Below, piece after piece: positions 4,700 through 63,236 of a stretch of DNA of 64,000 bases. The notes beneath the pieces are model-generated. The model was given only the letters and a program-made list of their open reading frames with translations, was not told the origin of the DNA and searched no databases. The stretch is from assembly GCA_964482735.1 (NCBI GenBank), contig CAYZYV010000001.1, positions 80,172 through 144,171 of the forward strand. Direction: 5' to 3'. Position 1 is the stretch's first letter. Every line of letters starts with the position of its first letter. The position numbers and the translations under genes are program-made. The stretch comes from an uncultured Candidatus Saccharibacteria bacterium. GTDB lineage: Bacteria > Patescibacteriota > Minisyncoccia > Phycocordibacterales > UBA9973.

Positions 4700-5555
4700 C
4701 TAATTCACCATCTTGTAAAACAGCATCCACCTTACTAGTTTCCATTAGGGTGCGATGGTCTTTGATCATTTTATAAGGATGGAGGACGTAAGACCTGATT
4801 TGGCTTCCCCACTCTATTTCTGTTGTTTTTGATATAGAAAAACCTTCTTTTTCTCTCTTTTTATCGTCTTCCTGTTTTTTATAAATTTTGCCCTTCAACA
4901 TCTCCATGGCCTTTTCTTTGTTTTGTTCTTGGGAACGTTCGCTTGTTACGTGGACAGAGATATTTGTGGGTATGTGAACTATCCGGACCGCTGTCTCTCT
5001 TTTGTTCACATTCTGTCCTCCAGGACCCCCAGCTTTCGAAAGTTCTATTCTGATGTCGTCTGGAGATATTTCTATTTCTTTATCATTCTTCTCAAACTCT
5101 GGTACAACTTCTACAAGCGAAAATGATGTGTGGCGAAGAGATTTGGCATTAAATGGTGAGATACGAACAAGACGATGAACTCCAGATTCGTTCTTTAATG
5201 TTCCATAAGCATTTTTACCTATTATTTCTAATGAAACATTTCGATATCCACCTAAGTCGTTTTTATTTTCGTGAATTATGCTATATGAAAAATTTTTTCT
5301 ATCAAGAAATTTCATATACATTCGCAAAAGCATGGCCGAGAAATCTTCTGCATCATCTCCTCCTGCTCCAGACAGGATAGATAAAATACAATTGCCCCTA
5401 TCATATTTGCCGACACCTTGAAGTTGATCTTTTAGTTCATTCATCCTCTTAATGACATTCTGAGCATTAACCTTATCATCCCAAAAGTTAACTTGAAGCA
5501 TTTGATCTTCAAGATTTTTTAATTCTTCTTCTATTTTTATCTTATCACTATCCAT
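4668..5555 (-). CDS. prfB: Peptide chain release factor 2; short N-terminus, no programmed frameshift
   Basis: GGQ motif GGQNVNKRETAVRIVHIPT. SPF tripeptide (RISPFNAK) marks RF2 rather than RF1. The listed ORF's first 20 codons are the antisense of tRNA-Thr, so the real start is taken as MDSDKIKIEE at 5555. Confidence 0.8.
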   Translation of the reverse strand: MDSDKIKIEEELKNLEDQMLQVNFWDDKVNAQNVIKRMNELKDQLQGVGKYDRGNCILSILSGAGGDDAEDFSAMLLRMYMKFLDRKNFSYSIIHENKNDLGGYRNVSLEIIGKNAYGTLKNESGVHRLVRISPFNAKSLRHTSFSLVEVVPEFEKNDKEIEISPDDIRIELSKAGGPGGQNVNKRETAVRIVHIPTNISVHVTSERSQEQNKEKAMEMLKGKIYKKQEDDKKREKEGFSISKTTEIEWGSQIRSYVLHPYKMIKDHRTLMETSKVDAVLQDGELDDFIEAEKDL

Positions 5556-6129: not shown

Positions 6130-6212
6130 CATTTATTTATAACCTATTTTAATAGAGGGTTTTTAAGGTTGAAAATATATTAAAATATGCTATATTTATA
6201 TCGCACAGATAG

Positions 6213-6290
6213 ATGTTGGTGTAGCTGTTTTGGTTAGGTTATATGTGAAATATGTCGGTGTAGCTGTTTTGGTTAGGTTATATGTGAAAT
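6213..6290 (+). repeat. 2 x 39-bp tandem repeat, a degenerate copy of the tRNA-Met 5' end and leader
   Basis: Unit ATGTYGGTGTAGCTGTTTTGGTTAGGTTATATGTGAAAT occurs twice. The third unit runs into the real tRNA, ATGTCGGTGTAGCTCAGCTGGTTAGAGC. The D loop CAGC is replaced by GTTT in the decoy copies. Confidence 0.7.
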
Positions 6291-6292
6291 AT

Positions 6293-6366
6293 GTCGGTGT
6301 AGCTCAGCTGGTTAGAGCGTGGGACTCATAAGCCCAAGGTCGGAGGTCCGAGCCCTCCCACCGACA
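6293..6366 (+). tRNA. tRNA-Met (CAU), elongator-type
   Basis: GTCGGTG / TAGCTCAGCTGGTTAGAGC / TGGGA-CTCATAA-GCCCA / GGAGG-TCCGAGC-CCTCC / CACCGAC-A. Resembles Bacillus elongator tRNA-Met. A lysidine-type tRNA-Ile2 is less likely given the tRNA-Ile(UAU) at 36116. Confidence 0.7.
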
Positions 6367-32833: not shown

Positions 32834-32965
32834 ATGAAAATAGAACTATCAAAAGCACAAACCATAATACTTCTTATGATTTTTATTGCTATTGGTGGAA
32901 TAGTTCTATATAGCGATACCAACCCAAACAATTTTTCACCCCTAGACCATGTATTTAAACGATAA
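32834..32965 (+). CDS. Possible 43-aa membrane peptide, leaderless-like
   Basis: MKIELSKAQTIILLMIFIAIGGIVLYSDTNPNNFSPLDHVFKR. A TATAAT sits 6 nt upstream. Overlaps the recG start by 17 nt. Confidence 0.25.
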   Translation: MKIELSKAQTIILLMIFIAIGGIVLYSDTNPNNFSPLDHVFKR

Positions 32966-35219
32966 AATAGAATCTCATTTTCGAATAGATATTAACCAAA
33001 AGAAAGCTCTAATAAAGCTAGGGCTTAATACTATTTCTGATTTGTTATTTTACTTTCCTTTTCGGTACTCAAACATAAGTGAATTCAGAAATATCAATAC
33101 TTTAGAAGATGGAGAATTGGTGACCATCATCGGCAAGGTTTCTAATCTTAAGACCAAGAAAGGGTTTAAGAGCAAAATCCCTATGGGACAAGCAACAATT
33201 ACTGATATGACAGGAAAAATAAACATTATCTGGTTCCACCAGCCATATTTAGCAAAAATGATAAAAGATGGAGCAACTGTTAAGGTAACAGGTAAGGTCT
33301 CAAATAGCAAAACTTACGGATTAACTTTAACTAATCCAGAAATTAGTAAAGAGGATATTTTGCCAATAGATATTAGTGATTCTTTGTTTAATAACCAGGA
33401 AAACATTTCTCAATTTGGCTTCCCTATATACGGAGAAACAAGAGGCATAACTTCTAAGTGGATTTATCATGCTATTAATAAAATCCTTAAGCAAGACTTT
33501 ATAAAGGGAATTTCAGACTATTTACCAAAAGAGATTTTAGATAAATACAAATTACCAACCCTTCACACTGCTCTTGTCTGGATACACACCCCACAAAAAA
33601 AAGAACATGCTGAAATTGCAAGAAAAAGATTCGCTTTCGAAGAAGTTTTCTTTATCCAATTGTCTCGATTACAAGAAAGAAAAAGGTACGAGGAGCTATT
33701 TTCTTATAAATTAAAAATAGACAATGACGATATCAAGGACTTCACTTCTCGTTTTCCATTCTCTCCCACCCTCGCACAAAAAGAAACCATTAAAACAATT
33801 TTGGATGATTTAAAGAAAGATAAACCAATGTCTCGTCTTATCGAAGGTGATGTTGGAAGCGGAAAAACTTTTGTCGCTGCGACAATTGCATATTCGGTTA
33901 TCAAGAATAGACCAGCTGGCCAAGATTTTGGAAATATTCAAGTCGCCTATATGGCTCCGACAGAAGTCTTAGCTACTCAACTCTTCGAAAATTTTATAAA
34001 ATATTTTGATCATACTGGAATATCCATAGGTCTAATTACTTCTTCAGGATGTCGTAAGTTTCCTAGCAAAAGTGCTGCTTGGGAAAATGGGAAACAAATT
34101 CACACTTGGACAACTATTTCTAAAAACCAGTTATTAAAATGGGTTAAAAATGGAGAAATACCTATTGTTATCGGAACACACTCTCTGATTTCTAAATCAG
34201 TTGATTTTGAAGATTTAGGTTTAGTTGTTATTGATGAGCAACATCGCTTTGGAACAAACCAAAGAATGAAACTAGCTAAAAAAGAAGGCCACTCCCCTCA
34301 CTACCTTTCCATGACTGCCACCCCTATTCCTCGAACTCTCGCTTTGACTATCTACGGAGATCTTGATTTATCTATCATAGACGAAATGCCAGCCGGAAGA
34401 AAAAAAGTTATCACTGAAATAGTTCCTGAAAATAAAAGGGAGTTGGCCTACGACAAAATTCGTGAAGAATTAAAAGCTGGCCGTCAACTTTATGTTATTT
34501 GCCCAAAAATCGAAAATGGAGATGGTGGCGAGATCGAGATTATTGATTCCGAGAGACCAGCGAGTGCGACGGCACGAGCTCGAGGAATTTTTCAGCAGAA
34601 AAATATCCGTGCTCTCGGAATCAATAATCTCGATCTCAAAAGCGTATCTTCCGAAGCAAAAAGATTAAAGAAAGAAGTTTTCCCTGAATACGAAATTGCA
34701 ATTATGCACAGTAAAATGAGTAAACAAAAAAAAGAACAGGTCATGAAAGACTTCGAAGATCATAAGATTGATATACTCGTCTCAACTTCTGTAATTGAAG
34801 TTGGAGTTAATGTTCCAAATGCCACAGTTATCGTTATCGAAGGAGCAGAAAGATTTGGGCTCGCTCAACTCCACCAGCTTCGTGGAAGAGTTATTAGATC
34901 AACTTATCAATCGTATTGTTACCTGTTTGCTAATGCAAAAGCGGATAAGACAATCGACAGATTGAAAGCACTTACCAAAGCTGCTAATGGTTTTGAACTT
35001 GCCGAATTAGATTTACAACTTCGAGGAGCAGGACTTCTTTCTGGAGACAAACAATGGGGTGTAAGTGACCTAGCTATGGAGGCTATGAAAAATATAAAAA
35101 TGGTAGAAGCTGCCCGTAGTGAAGCAAAAGAAATCATAGAAAAAGACGTTGAACTGAGAAATCACCAAACCCTTGCAAACACATTAAAAAACAAGCATCT
35201 AAACTTGCATTTTGAATAA
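32949..35219 (+). CDS. recG: ATP-dependent DNA helicase RecG
   Basis: 756 aa. Wedge domain, helicase motifs DVGSGKT, DEQHRFG, SATPIPRT and HQLRGRVIRS. Carries a 36-aa in-frame insertion encoded by the element at 34530-34637. Confidence 0.9.
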   Translation: MYLNDKIESHFRIDINQKKALIKLGLNTISDLLFYFPFRYSNISEFRNINTLEDGELVTIIGKVSNLKTKKGFKSKIPMGQATITDMTGKINIIWFHQPYLAKMIKDGATVKVTGKVSNSKTYGLTLTNPEISKEDILPIDISDSLFNNQENISQFGFPIYGETRGITSKWIYHAINKILKQDFIKGISDYLPKEILDKYKLPTLHTALVWIHTPQKKEHAEIARKRFAFEEVFFIQLSRLQERKRYEELFSYKLKIDNDDIKDFTSRFPFSPTLAQKETIKTILDDLKKDKPMSRLIEGDVGSGKTFVAATIAYSVIKNRPAGQDFGNIQVAYMAPTEVLATQLFENFIKYFDHTGISIGLITSSGCRKFPSKSAAWENGKQIHTWTTISKNQLLKWVKNGEIPIVIGTHSLISKSVDFEDLGLVVIDEQHRFGTNQRMKLAKKEGHSPHYLSMTATPIPRTLALTIYGDLDLSIIDEMPAGRKKVITEIVPENKRELAYDKIREELKAGRQLYVICPKIENGDGGEIEIIDSERPASATARARGIFQQKNIRALGINNLDLKSVSSEAKRLKKEVFPEYEIAIMHSKMSKQKKEQVMKDFEDHKIDILVSTSVIEVGVNVPNATVIVIEGAERFGLAQLHQLRGRVIRSTYQSYCYLFANAKADKTIDRLKALTKAANGFELAELDLQLRGAGLLSGDKQWGVSDLAMEAMKNIKMVEAARSEAKEIIEKDVELRNHQTLANTLKNKHLNLHFE
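34530..34637. mobile_element. MITE-like palindromic element (108 bp, perfect 26-bp TIR) inserted in-frame in recG
   Basis: Left arm GAGATCGAGATTATTGATTCCGAGAG (34530-34555) is the exact reverse complement of the right arm (34612-34637). The 56-bp GC-rich core contains CGACGGCACGAGCTCGAGG and the hairpin ATTTTTC-AGCA-GAAAAAT, also present at 6812-6830. Confidence 0.65.
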
Positions 35220-35221
35220 AA

Positions 35222-35252
35222 AAAGGGAGAACAACTCGTGCTCCCCCTCGCA
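35222..35252 (+). terminator. Terminator after recG
   Basis: GGGAGAACAACTCGTGCTCCCC hairpin. Confidence 0.45.
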
Positions 35253-35450
35253 TACCATCAGATTATTCTGGTGATATTTTTTATCTTTCATAAAATCTTT
35301 TCTATTCTTATTCAGAATAAAACCCGCTTTCGTTTGTAACTACTAACGACAATTTATTTCAGATAGAGCTTGATCCTTTAATTGAAGAAGATTGCTCGAT
35401 TCTATCTCCGGATAAAATCAAAGTACCACAGCACAAACAAAAAATCAACC

Positions 35451-35485
35451 ATTATCACTTTGAAACGGCCGTCAGATATGATAAT
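35451..35485. promoter_or_regulatory. Palindromic site ATTATCA-N19-TGATAAT containing the AACGGCCGTCAGAT core, upstream of the wHTH gene
   Basis: Inverted arms around the CGGCCG palindrome. A near-copy lies downstream of the gene at 36011-36049. Confidence 0.5.
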
Positions 35486-35494
35486 ATATAAAGT

Positions 35495-35992
35495 ATGAAA
35501 AATGATATTAGTTTAAATGTTGAAGATAAATTACAAAGTATTGGTGATTTATTAATAGCAATGCTTTGTAGCGCTAGAAATTCAAAACGTTTTCGTTCTA
35601 TAATTAGAGAAAGAGAGTTTATGAGATACAACAAGGAAAGTGTTCGCGTTTCCCTAACTAGACTAAGCAAGAAAGGATATGTAAGAAATTTAAACGGTGA
35701 GTGGAAAATAACCGATAAAGGAAAAAAATACTCACAATTTAATAACAAAAATGAATACATGTCTTCACCTTTTGAGAAAAGAGCAGAATGTAATACTATT
35801 TTATCTTTTGATATTTCAGAAAACTCAAGAAAAATAAGAAACTGGCTTAGAAACCAACTAAAAATTTTTGGGTATAAAATGCTACAGCAAAGTCTTTGGA
35901 TTGGACCAGGACCATTACCTCAAGAATTTCTAAAAAAACTTAAAGAATTAAAAATTCGTGAAAATATAAAAATATTCACAGTTAGTAAATAA
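35495..35992 (+). CDS. Winged-helix DNA-binding protein with C-terminal Cas2/VapD-like motif (paralog A)
   Basis: wHTH pattern VSLTRLSKKGYVRNLNGEWKITDKG. C-terminal ILSFDISENSRKIRNWLRNQLKIFGYKMLQQSLWIGPGPLP resembles Cas2 beta1-alpha1-beta2 (YDI...R..L..L..G.R.Q.SVF). Paralog at 50916-51395. Confidence 0.5.
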   Translation: MKNDISLNVEDKLQSIGDLLIAMLCSARNSKRFRSIIREREFMRYNKESVRVSLTRLSKKGYVRNLNGEWKITDKGKKYSQFNNKNEYMSSPFEKRAECNTILSFDISENSRKIRNWLRNQLKIFGYKMLQQSLWIGPGPLPQEFLKKLKELKIRENIKIFTVSK

Positions 35993-36010
35993 AAAATAAT
36001 TTTTACATTC

Positions 36011-36049
36011 TTATTATCATTATTAACGGCCGTCAGATGATGATAATAA
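36011..36049. repeat. Second copy of the AACGGCCGTCAGAT palindromic site (TTATTATCAT-N16-ATGATAATAA)
   Basis: Perfect 10-bp inverted arms. Direct repeat of the site at 35451-35485. Confidence 0.5.
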
Positions 36050-36115
36050 ATAAAAAATAAATCTATCTTTGGAAGATATATAAATAAACTTTTTAACCTA
36101 TTAAAATTACTTTTG

Positions 36116-36189
36116 TCCGTCCTCTAGGATTCGAACCTAGGACCCCAGAGGTATAAGCTCTGTGCTCTAACCAGCTGAGCTAAGGACGG
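36116..36189 (-). tRNA. tRNA-Ile (anticodon UAU)
   Basis: CCGTCCT / TAGCTCAGCTGGTTAGAGC / CAGAG-CTTATAC-CTCTG / CTAGG-TTCGAAT-CCTAG / AGGACGG-A. Anticodon TAT read directly from the loop. Confidence 0.75.
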
Positions 36190-36240
36190 AAGTCTGGTTT
36201 ATTATTTAAAACTAAACTATTACAACCATACACTTCCCGC

Positions 36241-36273
36241 CTAACCAAAACAGCTAAGGACGGAAGTCTGGTT
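36241..36273 (-). repeat. Degenerate duplicate of the tRNA-Ile 5' end plus 5' flank (decoy copy with a GTTTT D loop)
   Basis: CTAACCAAAACAGCTAAGGACGGAAGTCTGGTT at 36241-36273 versus CTAACCAGCTGAGCTAAGGACGGAAGTCTGGTT at 36169-36201. Same CAGC to GTTT substitution as in the tRNA-Met decoys. Confidence 0.6.
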
Positions 36274-36386
36274 AAAGACATATTAACCAAAAAAACAGTT
36301 ATTTGCAAATTTTACCGAACACAATTAAAGAAACAAGGCCTTGAACAGTTAATTATAAAAACCTTACTTTCGTAAGGTTTTTATAA

Positions 36387-38855: not shown

Positions 38856-39299
38856 ATGGCGATATTTTTGGACAACAGAAAAGCTCACTTCAACTACTCT
38901 ATAGAGGATACTTTTGAGGCAGGGATAGAATTGCTTGGTTTTGAAGTGAAATCAATTAAAAAAGGTCAGGGTAATCTAAACTCGGCTTTTTGTATCGTAA
39001 GAGGTGGAGAGGCTTATATAATAGGACTCCACGTTCCACCATATCAGCCAAACAATACTGACACAACTTATGACCCAGACAGAACCAGAAAGCTCTTGCT
39101 ATCAAAAAAAGAAATTAAGAAACTAGCCGACAAGGATGACATTAAAGGTTTGACTCTAGTCCCCCTTTCAATGTATAGTAAGGGTCCATACATCAAAGTC
39201 TCTGTAGCGGTTGCTCGTGGTAAAAAAGTTTTTGATAAAAGGGAAACAATTAAAAACCGTGACTTGGACAGAGAAATGGCTAGAGAGTATAAAAGATAG
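38856..39299 (+). CDS. smpB: SsrA-binding protein
   Basis: 147 aa. NRKAHFNYSIEDTFEAGIELLGFEVKSIK and the C-terminal basic tail match SmpB. tmRNA follows 16 nt downstream. Confidence 0.9.
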   Translation: MAIFLDNRKAHFNYSIEDTFEAGIELLGFEVKSIKKGQGNLNSAFCIVRGGEAYIIGLHVPPYQPNNTDTTYDPDRTRKLLLSKKEIKKLADKDDIKGLTLVPLSMYSKGPYIKVSVAVARGKKVFDKRETIKNRDLDREMAREYKR

Positions 39300-49889: not shown

Positions 49890-50696
49890 CTAACGAACAC
49901 ACCTAACATAGTTCCCGATACCCTGACTGCGGTCGCTCAAGCCACCACTGACCATGCTCTGGTAGTAAGCGAGCGAGAGAGGCGAAGACGGGACGGGGGT
50001 AGAAGACCAATAGTAGCTCGCAACGAAACCTATTGGTGCCCATGGATCGGCATCTCCATCAGAAGAAGCTTTTGAATTCCATGCATGAGATAAAGTTCTT
50101 GCTTGTTCAATAGAGGGAAGTTTGCCTCCATTTTTAGCACAGGCATCTGCTGCAACATATACACCGCTTGTACTATCTTTCCATGCCATAGTTCGATCTG
50201 TAGTTCTGTTTGTTCCATCTATTTCTACTCCATGAGTATCCCATTTAACTACTCCATTTTCATCTACAGACCATGCTTTTAGTTCACCTGCGTCATATAT
50301 GAGTGCAGTGGCTCCGAAACGTTGATAGATATCGGAAGTGGAATTACTATAACTAAAACATTTAACAATGATTCCTTGGTCAATAAGAGGTTGAACAATT
50401 TTAGCTAAATTACCACTGGTAGAATCTCCAAAGCCTCCATCTTCCTTTAAACCTGTACATGTTAAATTTGCATATCCAACGTTAGACCCTTCAAAGCTAC
50501 CTTTTGTTAACTGATTTAACGCCGCTTGATTATATAGCTGTTTTAAAGTTGATTTAATAGTAGCAATCTTTCCTTTTTCTCTTGCAGAATTTAGCGAGGC
50601 GATAACTACAGCAGAAAGAATTCCGATAATAGCGATGACCACTAGTAACTCAATCAACGTAAATGCTTTGTTGGATTTTAGAGATTCTTTTTTCAC
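49890..50696 (-). CDS. Type IV pilin-like N-terminus fused to a DUF1566 (Lcl C-terminal-like) domain
   Basis: N-terminal KAFTLIELLVVIAIIGILSAVVIASLNSAREKGK prepilin motif. C-terminal WSSTP...YVRCVR is the DUF1566 ending. The 3'-terminal 150 bp are strikingly GC-rich. Confidence 0.6.
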   Translation of the reverse strand: MKKESLKSNKAFTLIELLVVIAIIGILSAVVIASLNSAREKGKIATIKSTLKQLYNQAALNQLTKGSFEGSNVGYANLTCTGLKEDGGFGDSTSGNLAKIVQPLIDQGIIVKCFSYSNSTSDIYQRFGATALIYDAGELKAWSVDENGVVKWDTHGVEIDGTNRTTDRTMAWKDSTSGVYVAADACAKNGGKLPSIEQARTLSHAWNSKASSDGDADPWAPIGFVASYYWSSTPVPSSPLSLAYYQSMVSGGLSDRSQGIGNYVRCVR

Positions 50697-50874
50697 TTTT
50701 TTATTATACCACAGTAGCTCTAAAACTAAACACTTTTCCCCTAGGTCGGACCTAGGGGAATACCACAGTTTTGTCTAGAAATCTCCTTTGGTGTTCCTCA
50801 AAGGAGATTCTCATCCAAAACTGTTTGGTTACCCACTTAAACCTATAAGCTTAAAGACAACTCTTGGCTTTACC

Positions 50875-50910
50875 TCTCTACACTTTTACACAGGTGTGTG
50901 AAAGTGTAGA
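50875..50910. promoter_or_regulatory. 36-bp near-palindrome CTCTACACTTTTACACAGGTGTGTGAAAGTGTAGAG, between the wHTH gene and the pilin-DUF1566 gene
   Basis: Near-perfect dyad. A related copy (CACTTTTACACACCTGTGTGAAAATGTGAG) lies upstream of the wHTH gene at 51447-51476. Confidence 0.5.
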
Positions 50911-50915
50911 GAAGC

Positions 50916-51395
50916 TTAATAATTATTACTCGTTTTGAATATTTTAATGCAATCTTTAATCTTTATTTTTTTTAATCTACACAAGAATTCTTCTGGCAAT
51001 GGTCCAGGGCCCAACCAAAGACTTTGTTGCATCATCTCATATCCAAATATTTTCAACTGGCTCCTTAACCAATCTCTTGTTTTTCTCTGTGGACCGGGAA
51101 TATCAAAAGATATAATTGTGTTTTTGCGACTGTTCTTATTAAAAGGAGATACTATATAAGAAAACAGGTCATTACGAAGAGATTTTTTTATACCCTTTTT
51201 TGTTAATATAATTAAGTCTTCTTTTTTCTTTATATACCCATTATTTTTTAATCGATAAATAGCCATCCTTGATGATTGATTTTTATATCTTTCTTTTTCT
51301 AATCTGTTCATTATTTCTCTGAATCTTTTGGCGTTTTTACCACTAGATAACATAGCAATGATAAAATCAGAAATACTATTGTTAATTATGGGCAT
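50916..51395 (-). CDS. Winged-helix DNA-binding protein with C-terminal Cas2/VapD-like motif (paralog B)
   Basis: Clear paralog of 35495-35992. Shared blocks are ISFDI..R..R.WLR.QLKIFGY.M.QQSLW.GPGPLP.EFL and IKIF. Confidence 0.5.
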   Translation of the reverse strand: MPIINNSISDFIIAMLSSGKNAKRFREIMNRLEKERYKNQSSRMAIYRLKNNGYIKKKEDLIILTKKGIKKSLRNDLFSYIVSPFNKNSRKNTIISFDIPGPQRKTRDWLRSQLKIFGYEMMQQSLWLGPGPLPEEFLCRLKKIKIKDCIKIFKTSNNY

Positions 51396-51446
51396 AATCT
51401 ATAATTTGAATAGTTGATAAATTATCAAACCTTTTTCTAGTATTAT

Positions 51447-51476
51447 ACACTTTTACACACCTGTGTGAAAATGTGA
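51447..51476. promoter_or_regulatory. Upstream copy of the ACTTTTACACA..TGTGTGAAA dyad (putative operator of paralog B)
   Basis: Direct repeat of the site at 50875-50910, centred about 60 bp upstream of the paralog B start. Confidence 0.45.
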
Positions 51477-51478
51477 GA

Positions 51479-63122: not shown

Positions 63123-63199
63123 CCTGCCCGCAATGCTTTCGCATAGGCGATGCAAGCGGGCCTGCCCGCAATGCCTAAAGCATAGCTTTTGCAGGCGGG
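63123..63199. repeat. Two tandem units of the 40-bp CCTGCCCGCAATGC...GCRRGCGGG repeat (copies 2 and 3)
   Basis: 63123-63160 and 63161-63199. The second unit is nearly identical to 5719-5758. Confidence 0.6.
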
Positions 63200-63236
63200 C
63201 CACCTTTCAATAAGTATTTTCTTGTATGAATCTTTC

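Follow-up and report, generated by a model that had tools for sequence, protein, structure and literature searches.

PaaX of Escherichia coli W (PDB 8A39, COG3327), a repressor of the paa operons that responds to phenylacetyl-CoA, is a protein of about 300 amino acids (aa) with an N-terminal winged helix and a central Cas2-like domain. Its operator is the pair of widely spaced short inverted repeats TGATTC(N27)GAATCA, and it represses its own promoter, Px, by hindering RNA polymerase (PMC9493321). In the lac system, LacI bridging O1 and O3 roadblocks transcription of lacI at the 3′ end of the gene; the transcript is truncated and its product is SsrA-tagged and degraded (PMC3711431). Features of both systems meet in a 64-kb stretch of a genome of the candidate phyla radiation (CPR) (contig CAYZYV010000001.1; the whole stretch of 64,000 nucleotides is called the window), which carries two paralogous genes, A and B. 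Each encodes a short PaaX-like protein of about 160 aa, and each lies between two copies of its own composite palindrome of about 36 bp. The two proteins are read here, with a probability of roughly 0.6, as putative autorepressors with a predicted promoter-occluding operator upstream and, where the gene ends, a putative auxiliary operator of higher symmetry.

To our knowledge, almost nothing is known of transcription control in CPR bacteria, whose genomes are tiny and encode few regulators. The literature searches returned nothing linking PaaX with a Cas2-like fold, or Cas2 with a winged helix and PaaX, and nothing on CPR regulators of such kind. A conserved layout in which a gene has its own operator on either side, with a specificity private to it, appears not to have been described before in the literature searched.

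The features under study are the following (U, upstream site; D, downstream site; +, −, strand).

35451-35486, +: U_A, site upstream of gene A; core palindrome ACGGCCGT between outer inverted arms ATTATCA/TGATAAT, which are 21 nt apart.
35495-35992, +: gene A, 165 aa; winged helix at about residues 15-85, Cas2-like PaaX_M at residues 99-163.
36012-36047, +: D_A, downstream site of gene A; arms and 14-nt core as in U_A, spacers different.
50875-50912, −: D_B, downstream site of gene B; TCTCTACACTTTCACACACCTGTGTAAAAGTGTAGAGA; near-perfect palindrome with 18-bp arms.
50916-51395, −: gene B, 159 aa; paralog of A, with its two domains arranged as in A.
About 51442-51478, −: U_B, upstream site of gene B; CACATTTTCACACAGGTGTGTAAAAGTGTATAAT.

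An earlier note on this DNA had placed the two paralogs at these coordinates, which hold; the proteins are 52% identical over 135 aa (E 5e-47). It had described them as a winged helix followed by a C-terminus resembling Cas2 or VapD. Profiles and structure prediction bear this out, and the second domain proves to be one already catalogued, as the middle domain of PaaX. PF20803 (PaaX_M: the central Cas2-like domain of PaaX) scores 49.9 bits in A and 44.4 bits in B (cut-off 24) and is present in all of the best 120 homologs listed. PF07848 (the N-terminal winged helix of PaaX) stays below its cut-off of 24.8 (15 bits, E 0.03). The AlphaFold2 model (predicted local distance difference test, pLDDT, 81) has a helix-helix-β-hairpin N-half and a Cas2-like C-half of the order β-α-β-β-α-β. 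When the whole model is compared with the PDB by Foldseek, E. coli PaaX (8a39) and Rv0674 (3kfw) rank first, the former aligned over 154 columns with a probability of 0.98. The C-terminal half is matched by many Cas2 (3exc, 5zyf, 2ivy, 8ia4) and VapD (3ui3, 6zn8) structures, with probabilities of 0.94-1.0 overall; for Cas2 the probabilities are 0.97-1.0 and the target template modelling (TM) scores 0.45-0.61. A search of solved structures by sequence with the family profile gave nothing significant (best E 0.15).

Domain content and predicted fold place A and B in the PaaX superfamily, as short members that combine a winged helix with a Cas2-like domain and lack an effector domain. No match to PaaX_C was found; the protein ends with PaaX_M at residue 163-165, and phenylacetyl-CoA sensing is therefore not expected. 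The PaaX equivalog model TIGR02277 is matched only partially, with 28.6 and 20.4 bits for A and B (cut-off 264.55). The cas2 model TIGR01573 gives 25.7 bits for A (cut-off 24.5), over model positions 4-39 of 96 only, and 23.0 bits, below the cut-off, for B; with PF09827, B reaches 22.8 bits, below 23.8. PaaX_M is closer than Cas2 by sequence (E 4e-13 vs 1e-4). The two proteins belong to a known superfamily (PaaX-like, PF20803) but are neither PaaX proper nor Cas2. With Cas2 and VapD they share the ferredoxin-like fold of the C-domain, the Asp of β1 (FDI) and the basic motif of α1. They differ from them in that the sequence match covers only about 35 residues, that the domain is fused to a winged helix, and that no cas1, CRISPR array or VapX-like partner accompanies the gene. 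The statement that these are not standard Cas2 proteins thus stands: no CRISPR array was found in the 64 kb (TRF), and in a PADLOC search of 52 window proteins, among 25 of the 86 families listed, cas1 is lacking and the only cas matches are the weak Cas2 ones of A and B and generic Cas3-helicase-type ones, one member each. No paa catabolic family is found among 25 of the 68 Pfam families listed for the same 52 proteins, and the neighbours of the two genes, unlike those of paaX, are recG, tRNA-Ile and ftsH (A) and map and a pilin-like gene (B).

The C-terminal motif of A is SFDISE..R..RNWLRNQLKIFGYKMLQQSLWIGPGPLP; the strongly conserved family motif is FDIPE..R..R.WLR.QL....F.M.Q.S.W.G.GPLP.EF. 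The β1 Asp is invariant in the alignments, including the distant subfamily (see below), in which Tyr at position 127 is not kept. At E ≤ 1e-10 the family numbers 1124 clusters (50% identity); among the 150 best of these, lengths are almost always 150-230 aa. The closest homologs of A and B all come from metagenome-assembled genomes (MAGs) of the Paceibacteria/Nomurabacteria type. As sampled, the short family is confined, unlike PaaX, to Paceibacteria and other CPR genomes.

Dyad-symmetric sites of about 35 bp had been reported on both sides of each gene, with a different pair for each paralog. Both points are confirmed: the sites are composite palindromes of about 36 bp, and the cores of A and B each occur only at their own two sites in 64 kb. 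At A, the outer inverted arms are TTATCA(C)...(G)TGATAA. AACGGCCGTCAGAT is found exactly in U_A and D_A and is absent elsewhere in the window (chance expectation 0.15). D_A begins 20 nt beyond the stop codon, with the convergent tRNA-Ile 67 nt away. At B, outer arms CTACAC...GTGTAG enclose the centre ACACA-GG/CC-TGTGT; the 24-nt pattern of the B sites matches only U_B and D_B in 64 kb (chance expectation 0.00), and D_B starts 4 nt after the stop codon. The wide spacing of short inverted repeats recalls the PaaX operator (TGATTC-N27-GAATCA; here TTATCA-N21/22-TGATAA). The central palindrome, the second site copy after the stop codon and the presence of several orthogonal paralogs per genome are not features of PaaX. 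No third paralog was found in the window.

Both upstream sites contain a σ70-like promoter. In U_A the match is TTGAAA(35460)-16-TAATAT(35487) with a TG extension; its −10 ends 7 nt before the ATG, so that the mRNA of A would be leaderless or nearly so. In U_B the match is TTCACA-16-TATAAT (11/12). The centre of U_B lies 65 nt before the ATG, from which a 5′ untranslated region (UTR) of about 40 nt may be expected for B, unlike A. Lack of a Shine-Dalgarno (SD) motif was considered as a sign of leaderless mRNA and set aside as uninformative, since SD-like tetramers (positions −20 to −4) are rare in the window: 5/56 open reading frames (ORFs).

In the proposed mechanism, a dimer of the protein would bind its own composite palindrome, with the winged helices on the outer arms and the Cas2-like dimer probably over the central palindrome. 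U overlaps the −35 and the extended −10, and bound protein would occlude RNA polymerase there; this would be negative autoregulation of the kind exerted by PaaX on its own promoter, predicted here from promoter-like hexamers. D, the purer operator near the stop codon, would raise the occupancy of U via looping of the gene (about 530-570 bp). Alternatively or additionally, D may stop polymerases at the 3′ end of the gene. Such a roadblock could act on transcripts arriving from convergent neighbours and on the gene's own transcripts, which would become truncated non-stop mRNA, as with LacI at O3. Going by the general behaviour of roadblocked polymerases, a roadblock beginning 3-5 nt after the stop codon would leave the RNA 3′ end within the last codons.

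The likeness to lacI lies in the operator at the 3′ end of the repressor's own gene and in components of SsrA tagging: a transfer-messenger RNA (tmRNA) is encoded in the window, and the 147-aa ORF at 38856-39299 next to it is likely smpB by position (an orthologous locus, L039, has a Pfam-annotated SmpB gene in the equivalent place; L numbers designate the compared loci). LacI and the present proteins are of unrelated families. The second operator in lac is that of the neighbouring lacZ promoter, and the lacI promoter has none; A and B each have two private sites, one of which is the gene's own promoter. The roadblock is proposed by analogy. The operators of phage 186 CI, lambda CI and toxin-antitoxin systems, which form self-contained and rapidly diversifying pairs with their repressors, are similar in their private, co-diversifying specificity and in flanking the repressor gene. 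Cooperative binding over long range would be a further likeness. The loci of A and B differ in having no prophage or toxin-antitoxin context: each is a single gene among housekeeping neighbours (recG, ftsH, map).

The layout was compared over two sets of loci. Close set: 39 loci (38 from GTDB species genomes, and the window). Distant set: a subfamily sampled from metagenomes, 60 distinct loci, whose members are 24-37% identical to the nearest aligned member. The flank-sharing score is that of the best ungapped match of a gene's two flanks, taken as 80 nt on each side (threshold ≥14); 75 other genes of the same close loci served as controls. The median score is 18 for the 39 family genes and 7 for the controls, and the threshold is reached by 30/39 family genes vs 1/75 controls. 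Matched flank pairs are found at 42 of the 60 distant loci, and at 76 of 104 loci overall, in two subfamilies; the flanking repeats are thus conserved around other family members. The earlier note had named a fold unlike Cas2, together with unconserved repeats, as what would refute it; both turned out otherwise. Matches of a site hidden Markov model (HMM) fall almost only at about −26 from the ATG and at +12 to +42 after the stop codon (38 loci and the window). Site centres have medians of −26 for U and of +21 to +22.5 for D in the two subfamilies, and D starts about 3-5 nt after the stop codon.

These counts bear on the explanation that the sites are those of a different factor, or that common intergenic repeats or terminators lie beside the genes by chance. 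Palindromes at gene ends are common, and hairpin terminators occupy the corresponding junction in relatives that lack the module (the gene with its two sites). Against this, the site HMM matches nowhere else in the 64 kb and about 230 kb of loci, the two paralogs of one genome use different cores, and the sites follow the gene through more than 10 genomic contexts in two subfamilies, while a single control gene reaches the threshold. This explanation is highly improbable; the site HMM and the control genes largely refute it.

One proposal of the earlier note was an autoregulated repressor with a second operator on a neighbouring promoter. Its first half agrees with the promoter-like matches in both upstream sites. 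Its second half is not supported: D keeps its position near the stop codon of its own gene (median start 3-4.5 nt after it) whatever gene lies beyond, and the next gene is convergent at 33/39 close loci, that of A included. Use of D as a leaderless promoter of the downstream gene was also rejected: the next start may be as near as 26 nt or as far as 200 nt, and the neighbouring genes are of many kinds. An insulator of convergent junctions, as a general rule, is ruled out by the distant subfamily, in which only 14/54 loci have a convergent neighbour. An insulator that replaces a terminator at gene junctions is a further candidate role, whose support does not go beyond the features described here for the module. 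In L026 and L029, which have no D, its position is taken by an intrinsic-terminator-like hairpin.

Site sequences vary between loci, yet the two copies of each locus agree in core and arms. The general geometry is that of outer 7-bp inverted arms, about 28 bp apart centre to centre, around a central palindrome of 8-10 bp. Cores: ACGGCCGT, ACGATCGT, ACAGCTGT, ACAGGTGT/ACACCTGT, CCGGCCGG, CGCGATCGCG, GCTATCGC and two non-palindromic ones. Arms: TTATCA, TTAACA, TATACA, ATAGCA, CAAGCA. The copies are mostly direct repeats (identity about 30-37/38 in direct vs 20-26 in inverted orientation). In L039, whose protein is an 89% ortholog of A, U is identical to that of the window and D is changed at about eight spacer positions, with arms and core kept; this points to selection on arms and core in D rather than to passive homogenisation. 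In a 79% ortholog of B, the arms have changed from CTACAC to ATCACAC in both copies. At many loci the right arm of U is GATAAT, a better −10, where D has the symmetric GATAAC, and D copies are on average slightly more symmetric than U. Such differences would be expected if binding were best at the palindrome and U were a compromise between operator and promoter.

Several observations weigh against autorepression from both gene ends. Apart from four extra copies beside the module, neither the window nor about 340 kb of loci yielded any site off the module, and a regulator that controls only itself has no obvious purpose. If U is occluded, a 3′ roadblock on the gene's own transcripts becomes partly redundant. 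Judged by eye only, the centres of U and D, 511-572 bp apart, are not in any obvious helical phase. The two copies have inverted relative orientation in L025 and L034, and mismatched cores in L002 and L007. Co-variation of the recognition helix with the site class, judged by eye, is suggestive and confounded by phylogeny. Finally, D may also, or instead, be an RNA hairpin: its sense strand folds better than the antisense strand across 90 loci (54 vs 31, p=0.025), and the mismatches of its dyad are more often of the G.T type than of the A.C type (34 vs 18), a wobble-compatible bias of the sense strand seen in D only; the loci are phylogenetically non-independent.

These last two points are also the starting point of another explanation, in which D serves mainly as a stem-loop at the 3′ end of the mRNA of its gene, for termination, stabilisation or processing, and is perhaps recognised or cut by the Cas2/VapD-like domain; some relatives of this domain are endoribonucleases, and its β1 Asp is invariant. 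In folding, D is more stable than U at A (−11.8 vs −6.7 kcal/mol) and at B (−26.9 vs −8.9 kcal/mol), and better folded at 55 vs 33 of the 90 loci (p=0.018). In L021 the site pairs fully only with three sense-strand G.U pairs (checked by hand), and its two copies are separated by one compensatory change from U-A to C-G. The hairpins that take the place of D in L026 and L029 fit as well. On the other side, these statistics are weak. No intrinsic terminator was found at D_A or D_B by the terminator scan, and neither is followed by a T-run; Rfam detects only tRNA at both loci and nothing at the sites. D keeps the exact arms and core of the untranscribed promoter copy, which a structural hairpin would not need. 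The spacers of the ACGGCCGT class are T-rich on both sides and unable to pair, and 121/173 mismatches in D are of the transversion type; both features argue for a double-stranded DNA site, not an RNA hairpin, in most of the family. D as mainly an RNA element is considered unlikely.

Mobility of the module was the other proposal of the earlier note, in the form of small mobile cassettes with their own end sequences. An active element does not agree with the conserved surroundings. In the close set, recG lies just upstream at 16/39 loci and ftsH downstream at 7/39. Among orthologs of A, L039 and L043 keep ftsH and smpB downstream, and L039 also has recG upstream (the upstream gene of L043 is unannotated); orthologs of B keep map upstream. 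The paralogs of one genome are only 52% identical and no near-identical module copies were found, nor any target duplication or tRNA-derived att repeat. A tRNA-integration scar was rejected: no repeat of at least 8 nt from the tRNA-Ile region occurs near the end of recG. The module thus also differs from insertion sequences and miniature inverted-repeat transposable elements, which would show many near-identical copies, target-site duplications and variable insertion sites. A gene for an IS200/IS605-type Y1 transposase (148 aa; L041 3390-3836, L042 49-495) stands divergently beside a 73%-identical A-like module. It was rejected as a module partner: it lies beside L041/L042 only, with GC-rich end hairpins of its own, and none was found in the other loci or the window.

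In a weaker form, the cassette proposal does find support. Six recG homologs were picked regardless of module presence, and the module is present at one of the six. The five others (among L132-L136) lack the module and have no solitary site; what follows recG there is either tRNA-Ile, 9 nt from the stop codon, or a canonical intrinsic terminator for both directions, made up of an A-run, a GC-containing hairpin and a T-run (e.g. L134 5182-5232). L131, whose RecG is 86% identical, carries at the equivalent recG/tRNA-Ile position a module with a protein 58% identical to A and sites of the ACACCTGT type. Its DNA is homologous to the window up to the recG stop codon, and beyond it only in the conserved stretch coding for the Cas2-like domain, in D and in the tRNA. 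Rapid co-diversification could account for this pattern, and so could replacement of one set of regulator and sites by another at an unchanged position. The evidence does not support a cassette that is mobile at present; close relatives either have the whole module or lack it, and it is dispensable.

The same loci bring in the explanation that the sites serve recombination or integration: the unit of site, gene and site, with neighbours, would be inserted, exchanged or lost by site-specific recombination, and the protein may be an accessory factor. The absence of the module as a unit, with no solitary site left, and the different module and core of L131 would suit it. So would the conservation of outer arms across loci around a pair-specific central region, as in lox/FRT or dif sites. 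Extra copies of the own site are present at four loci (L004 2101-2136, L005 2215-2249, L036 5235-5269, L035 3575-3602). In three of them, inserted neighbour genes (L004, TauE; L005, HAD hydrolase; L036, PIF1-like helicase) are bracketed by near-identical copies of about 36 bp, limited precisely to the site. The extra copy of L005, with two mutations in its core, seems to have decayed. The PIF1 gene also occurs in L011, an 83% relative of L036, with no second copy of the site. At B, the central dinucleotide is GG in U_B (51446-51474) and CC in D_B (50879-50907), the only asymmetric core positions; the flip is conserved in the 79% ortholog L046, whereas other ACACCTGT-class loci have both copies in one orientation.

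Against recombination stand, besides the synteny, the age of the paralogs and the lack of duplications given above, the palindromic centres (the crossover regions of lox, FRT and dif are asymmetric) and the fixed −26 promoter geometry, unexpected of an att site. U and D spacers drift independently while arms and core stay, which indicates binding selection rather than copying. Extra copies are rare: four loci in about 340 kb. No recombinase, integrase or cas1 was found among annotated neighbours, which cover about 20 loci and the families listed from the scans of the window; most neighbours in about 100 loci are only clustered or unannotated. Integron attC and dif/Xer modules are comparable in that imperfect palindromes bound genes, that duplicated sites occur, though rarely, and that whole modules are present or absent. 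They differ in their linked integrase or Xer gene, whereas here one site type lies on both sides of a single gene, overlaps a promoter at a fixed distance, has a palindromic centre and stays in conserved synteny. Recombination as the role of the sites is judged unlikely.

Dispensability, together with other traits, also leads to an addiction-like or selfish single-gene module: a toxin-type nuclease of the Cas2/VapD kind under very tight self-repression, which would persist and diversify like toxin-antitoxin or phage immunity loci. Its targets are confined to the module itself, and protein and site co-diversify quickly at a syntenic position. At least two sampled genomes have two paralogs each, with different or private sites: that of the window (A and B) and a Nomurabacteria MAG (L002, L003). 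In both genomes where two paralogs are visible, they are orthogonal. VapD toxins are among the structural neighbours, and the Asp is invariant. Against this, there is no partner antitoxin gene; a hidden antisense gene was sought and rejected, as the longest antisense ORFs show no conservation and range in length from 32 to 141 aa. Unlike VapXD-like type II toxin-antitoxin systems, A and B are single genes, not part of a two-gene operon. PaaX uses the corresponding domain for dimerisation, and Tyr 127 is lost in the distant subfamily. Such a module, whose toxicity is hypothetical, is improbable.

A more far-reaching possibility is that these are a hitherto unrecognised class of self-contained accessory modules of CPR genomes. 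The Cas2-like protein would recognise the partly palindromic repeats of about 36 bp on both sides of its gene, and DNA would now and then be inserted at a repeat with precise duplication of the repeat (compare L004, L005, L036), or the modules would form a new single-gene addiction or insulator element. This is quite improbable. If true, insertion or exchange directed by a repeat would recall the repeat duplication of CRISPR adaptation, to which it might be evolutionarily related.

If the autorepressor reading is right, a family of 1124 clusters brings its presumptive operator twice beside the gene, which would give testable protein-DNA specificity pairs and a naturally diversified recognition code. 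The operator-at-both-ends layout, whose nearest precedent is the O3 roadblock of lacI, could reveal tight homeostasis of a DNA-binding protein in very small cells. Orthogonal repressor-operator pairs are possible parts for synthetic biology. The private targets, the dispensability and the speed with which protein and site diversify together hint at a role beyond autoregulation.

The window has a G+C content of 34.6% and carries housekeeping genes, typical of a CPR genome of the Paceibacteria/Nomurabacteria type. Nearly all its genes are on the minus strand; recG and gene A form a plus-strand island. Around A, recG (32949-35219, +) lies upstream; the convergent tRNA-Ile (36115-36189, −) and then ftsH lie downstream. 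The spacer between recG and U is 275 nt long in the window vs 45-66 nt in many relatives. Just after recG it contains two terminator-like hairpins (35223-35249, −; 35256-35273, +), the minus-oriented one being stronger. The latter would fit read-through from ftsH and tRNA-Ile that crosses gene A antisense and ends there.

The 5′ end of tRNA-Ile(tat) with about 10 nt of its leader (GCTAAGGACGGAAGTCTGGTT; 36177-36201) is repeated about 74 bp further upstream (36252-36274). L131 has two or three copies (6150-6330) and the module-less L135 one (5340-5440); since it also occurs in the latter, this repeat does not depend on the PaaX-like module. A tandem duplication of the promoter/leader region of the tRNA may be its origin.

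Gene B directly follows map at the end of a secY-adk-map gene string, and the pilin-like gene (49890-50696) is next. The predicted 5′ UTR of B contains the palindrome TTGATAA-T-TTATCAA (51414-51428, −), made of the outer-arm hexamers of the A type head to head; it could be a chance product of AT-rich DNA or a site of cross-regulation by paralog A. The spacer of 220 nt between D_B and the pilin-like gene holds two strong hairpins, 50736-50760 and 50765-50824 (TTCCCCTAGGTC/GACCTAGGGGAA and an inverted repeat with 26-nt arms), with no Rfam match above threshold. Two 39-nt tandem repeats lie elsewhere in the window: one at 6213-6304 (2.4 copies, 98% match) between two tRNA-Met genes, and one at 63123-63201 (2.1 copies) that is GC-rich and partly palindromic.

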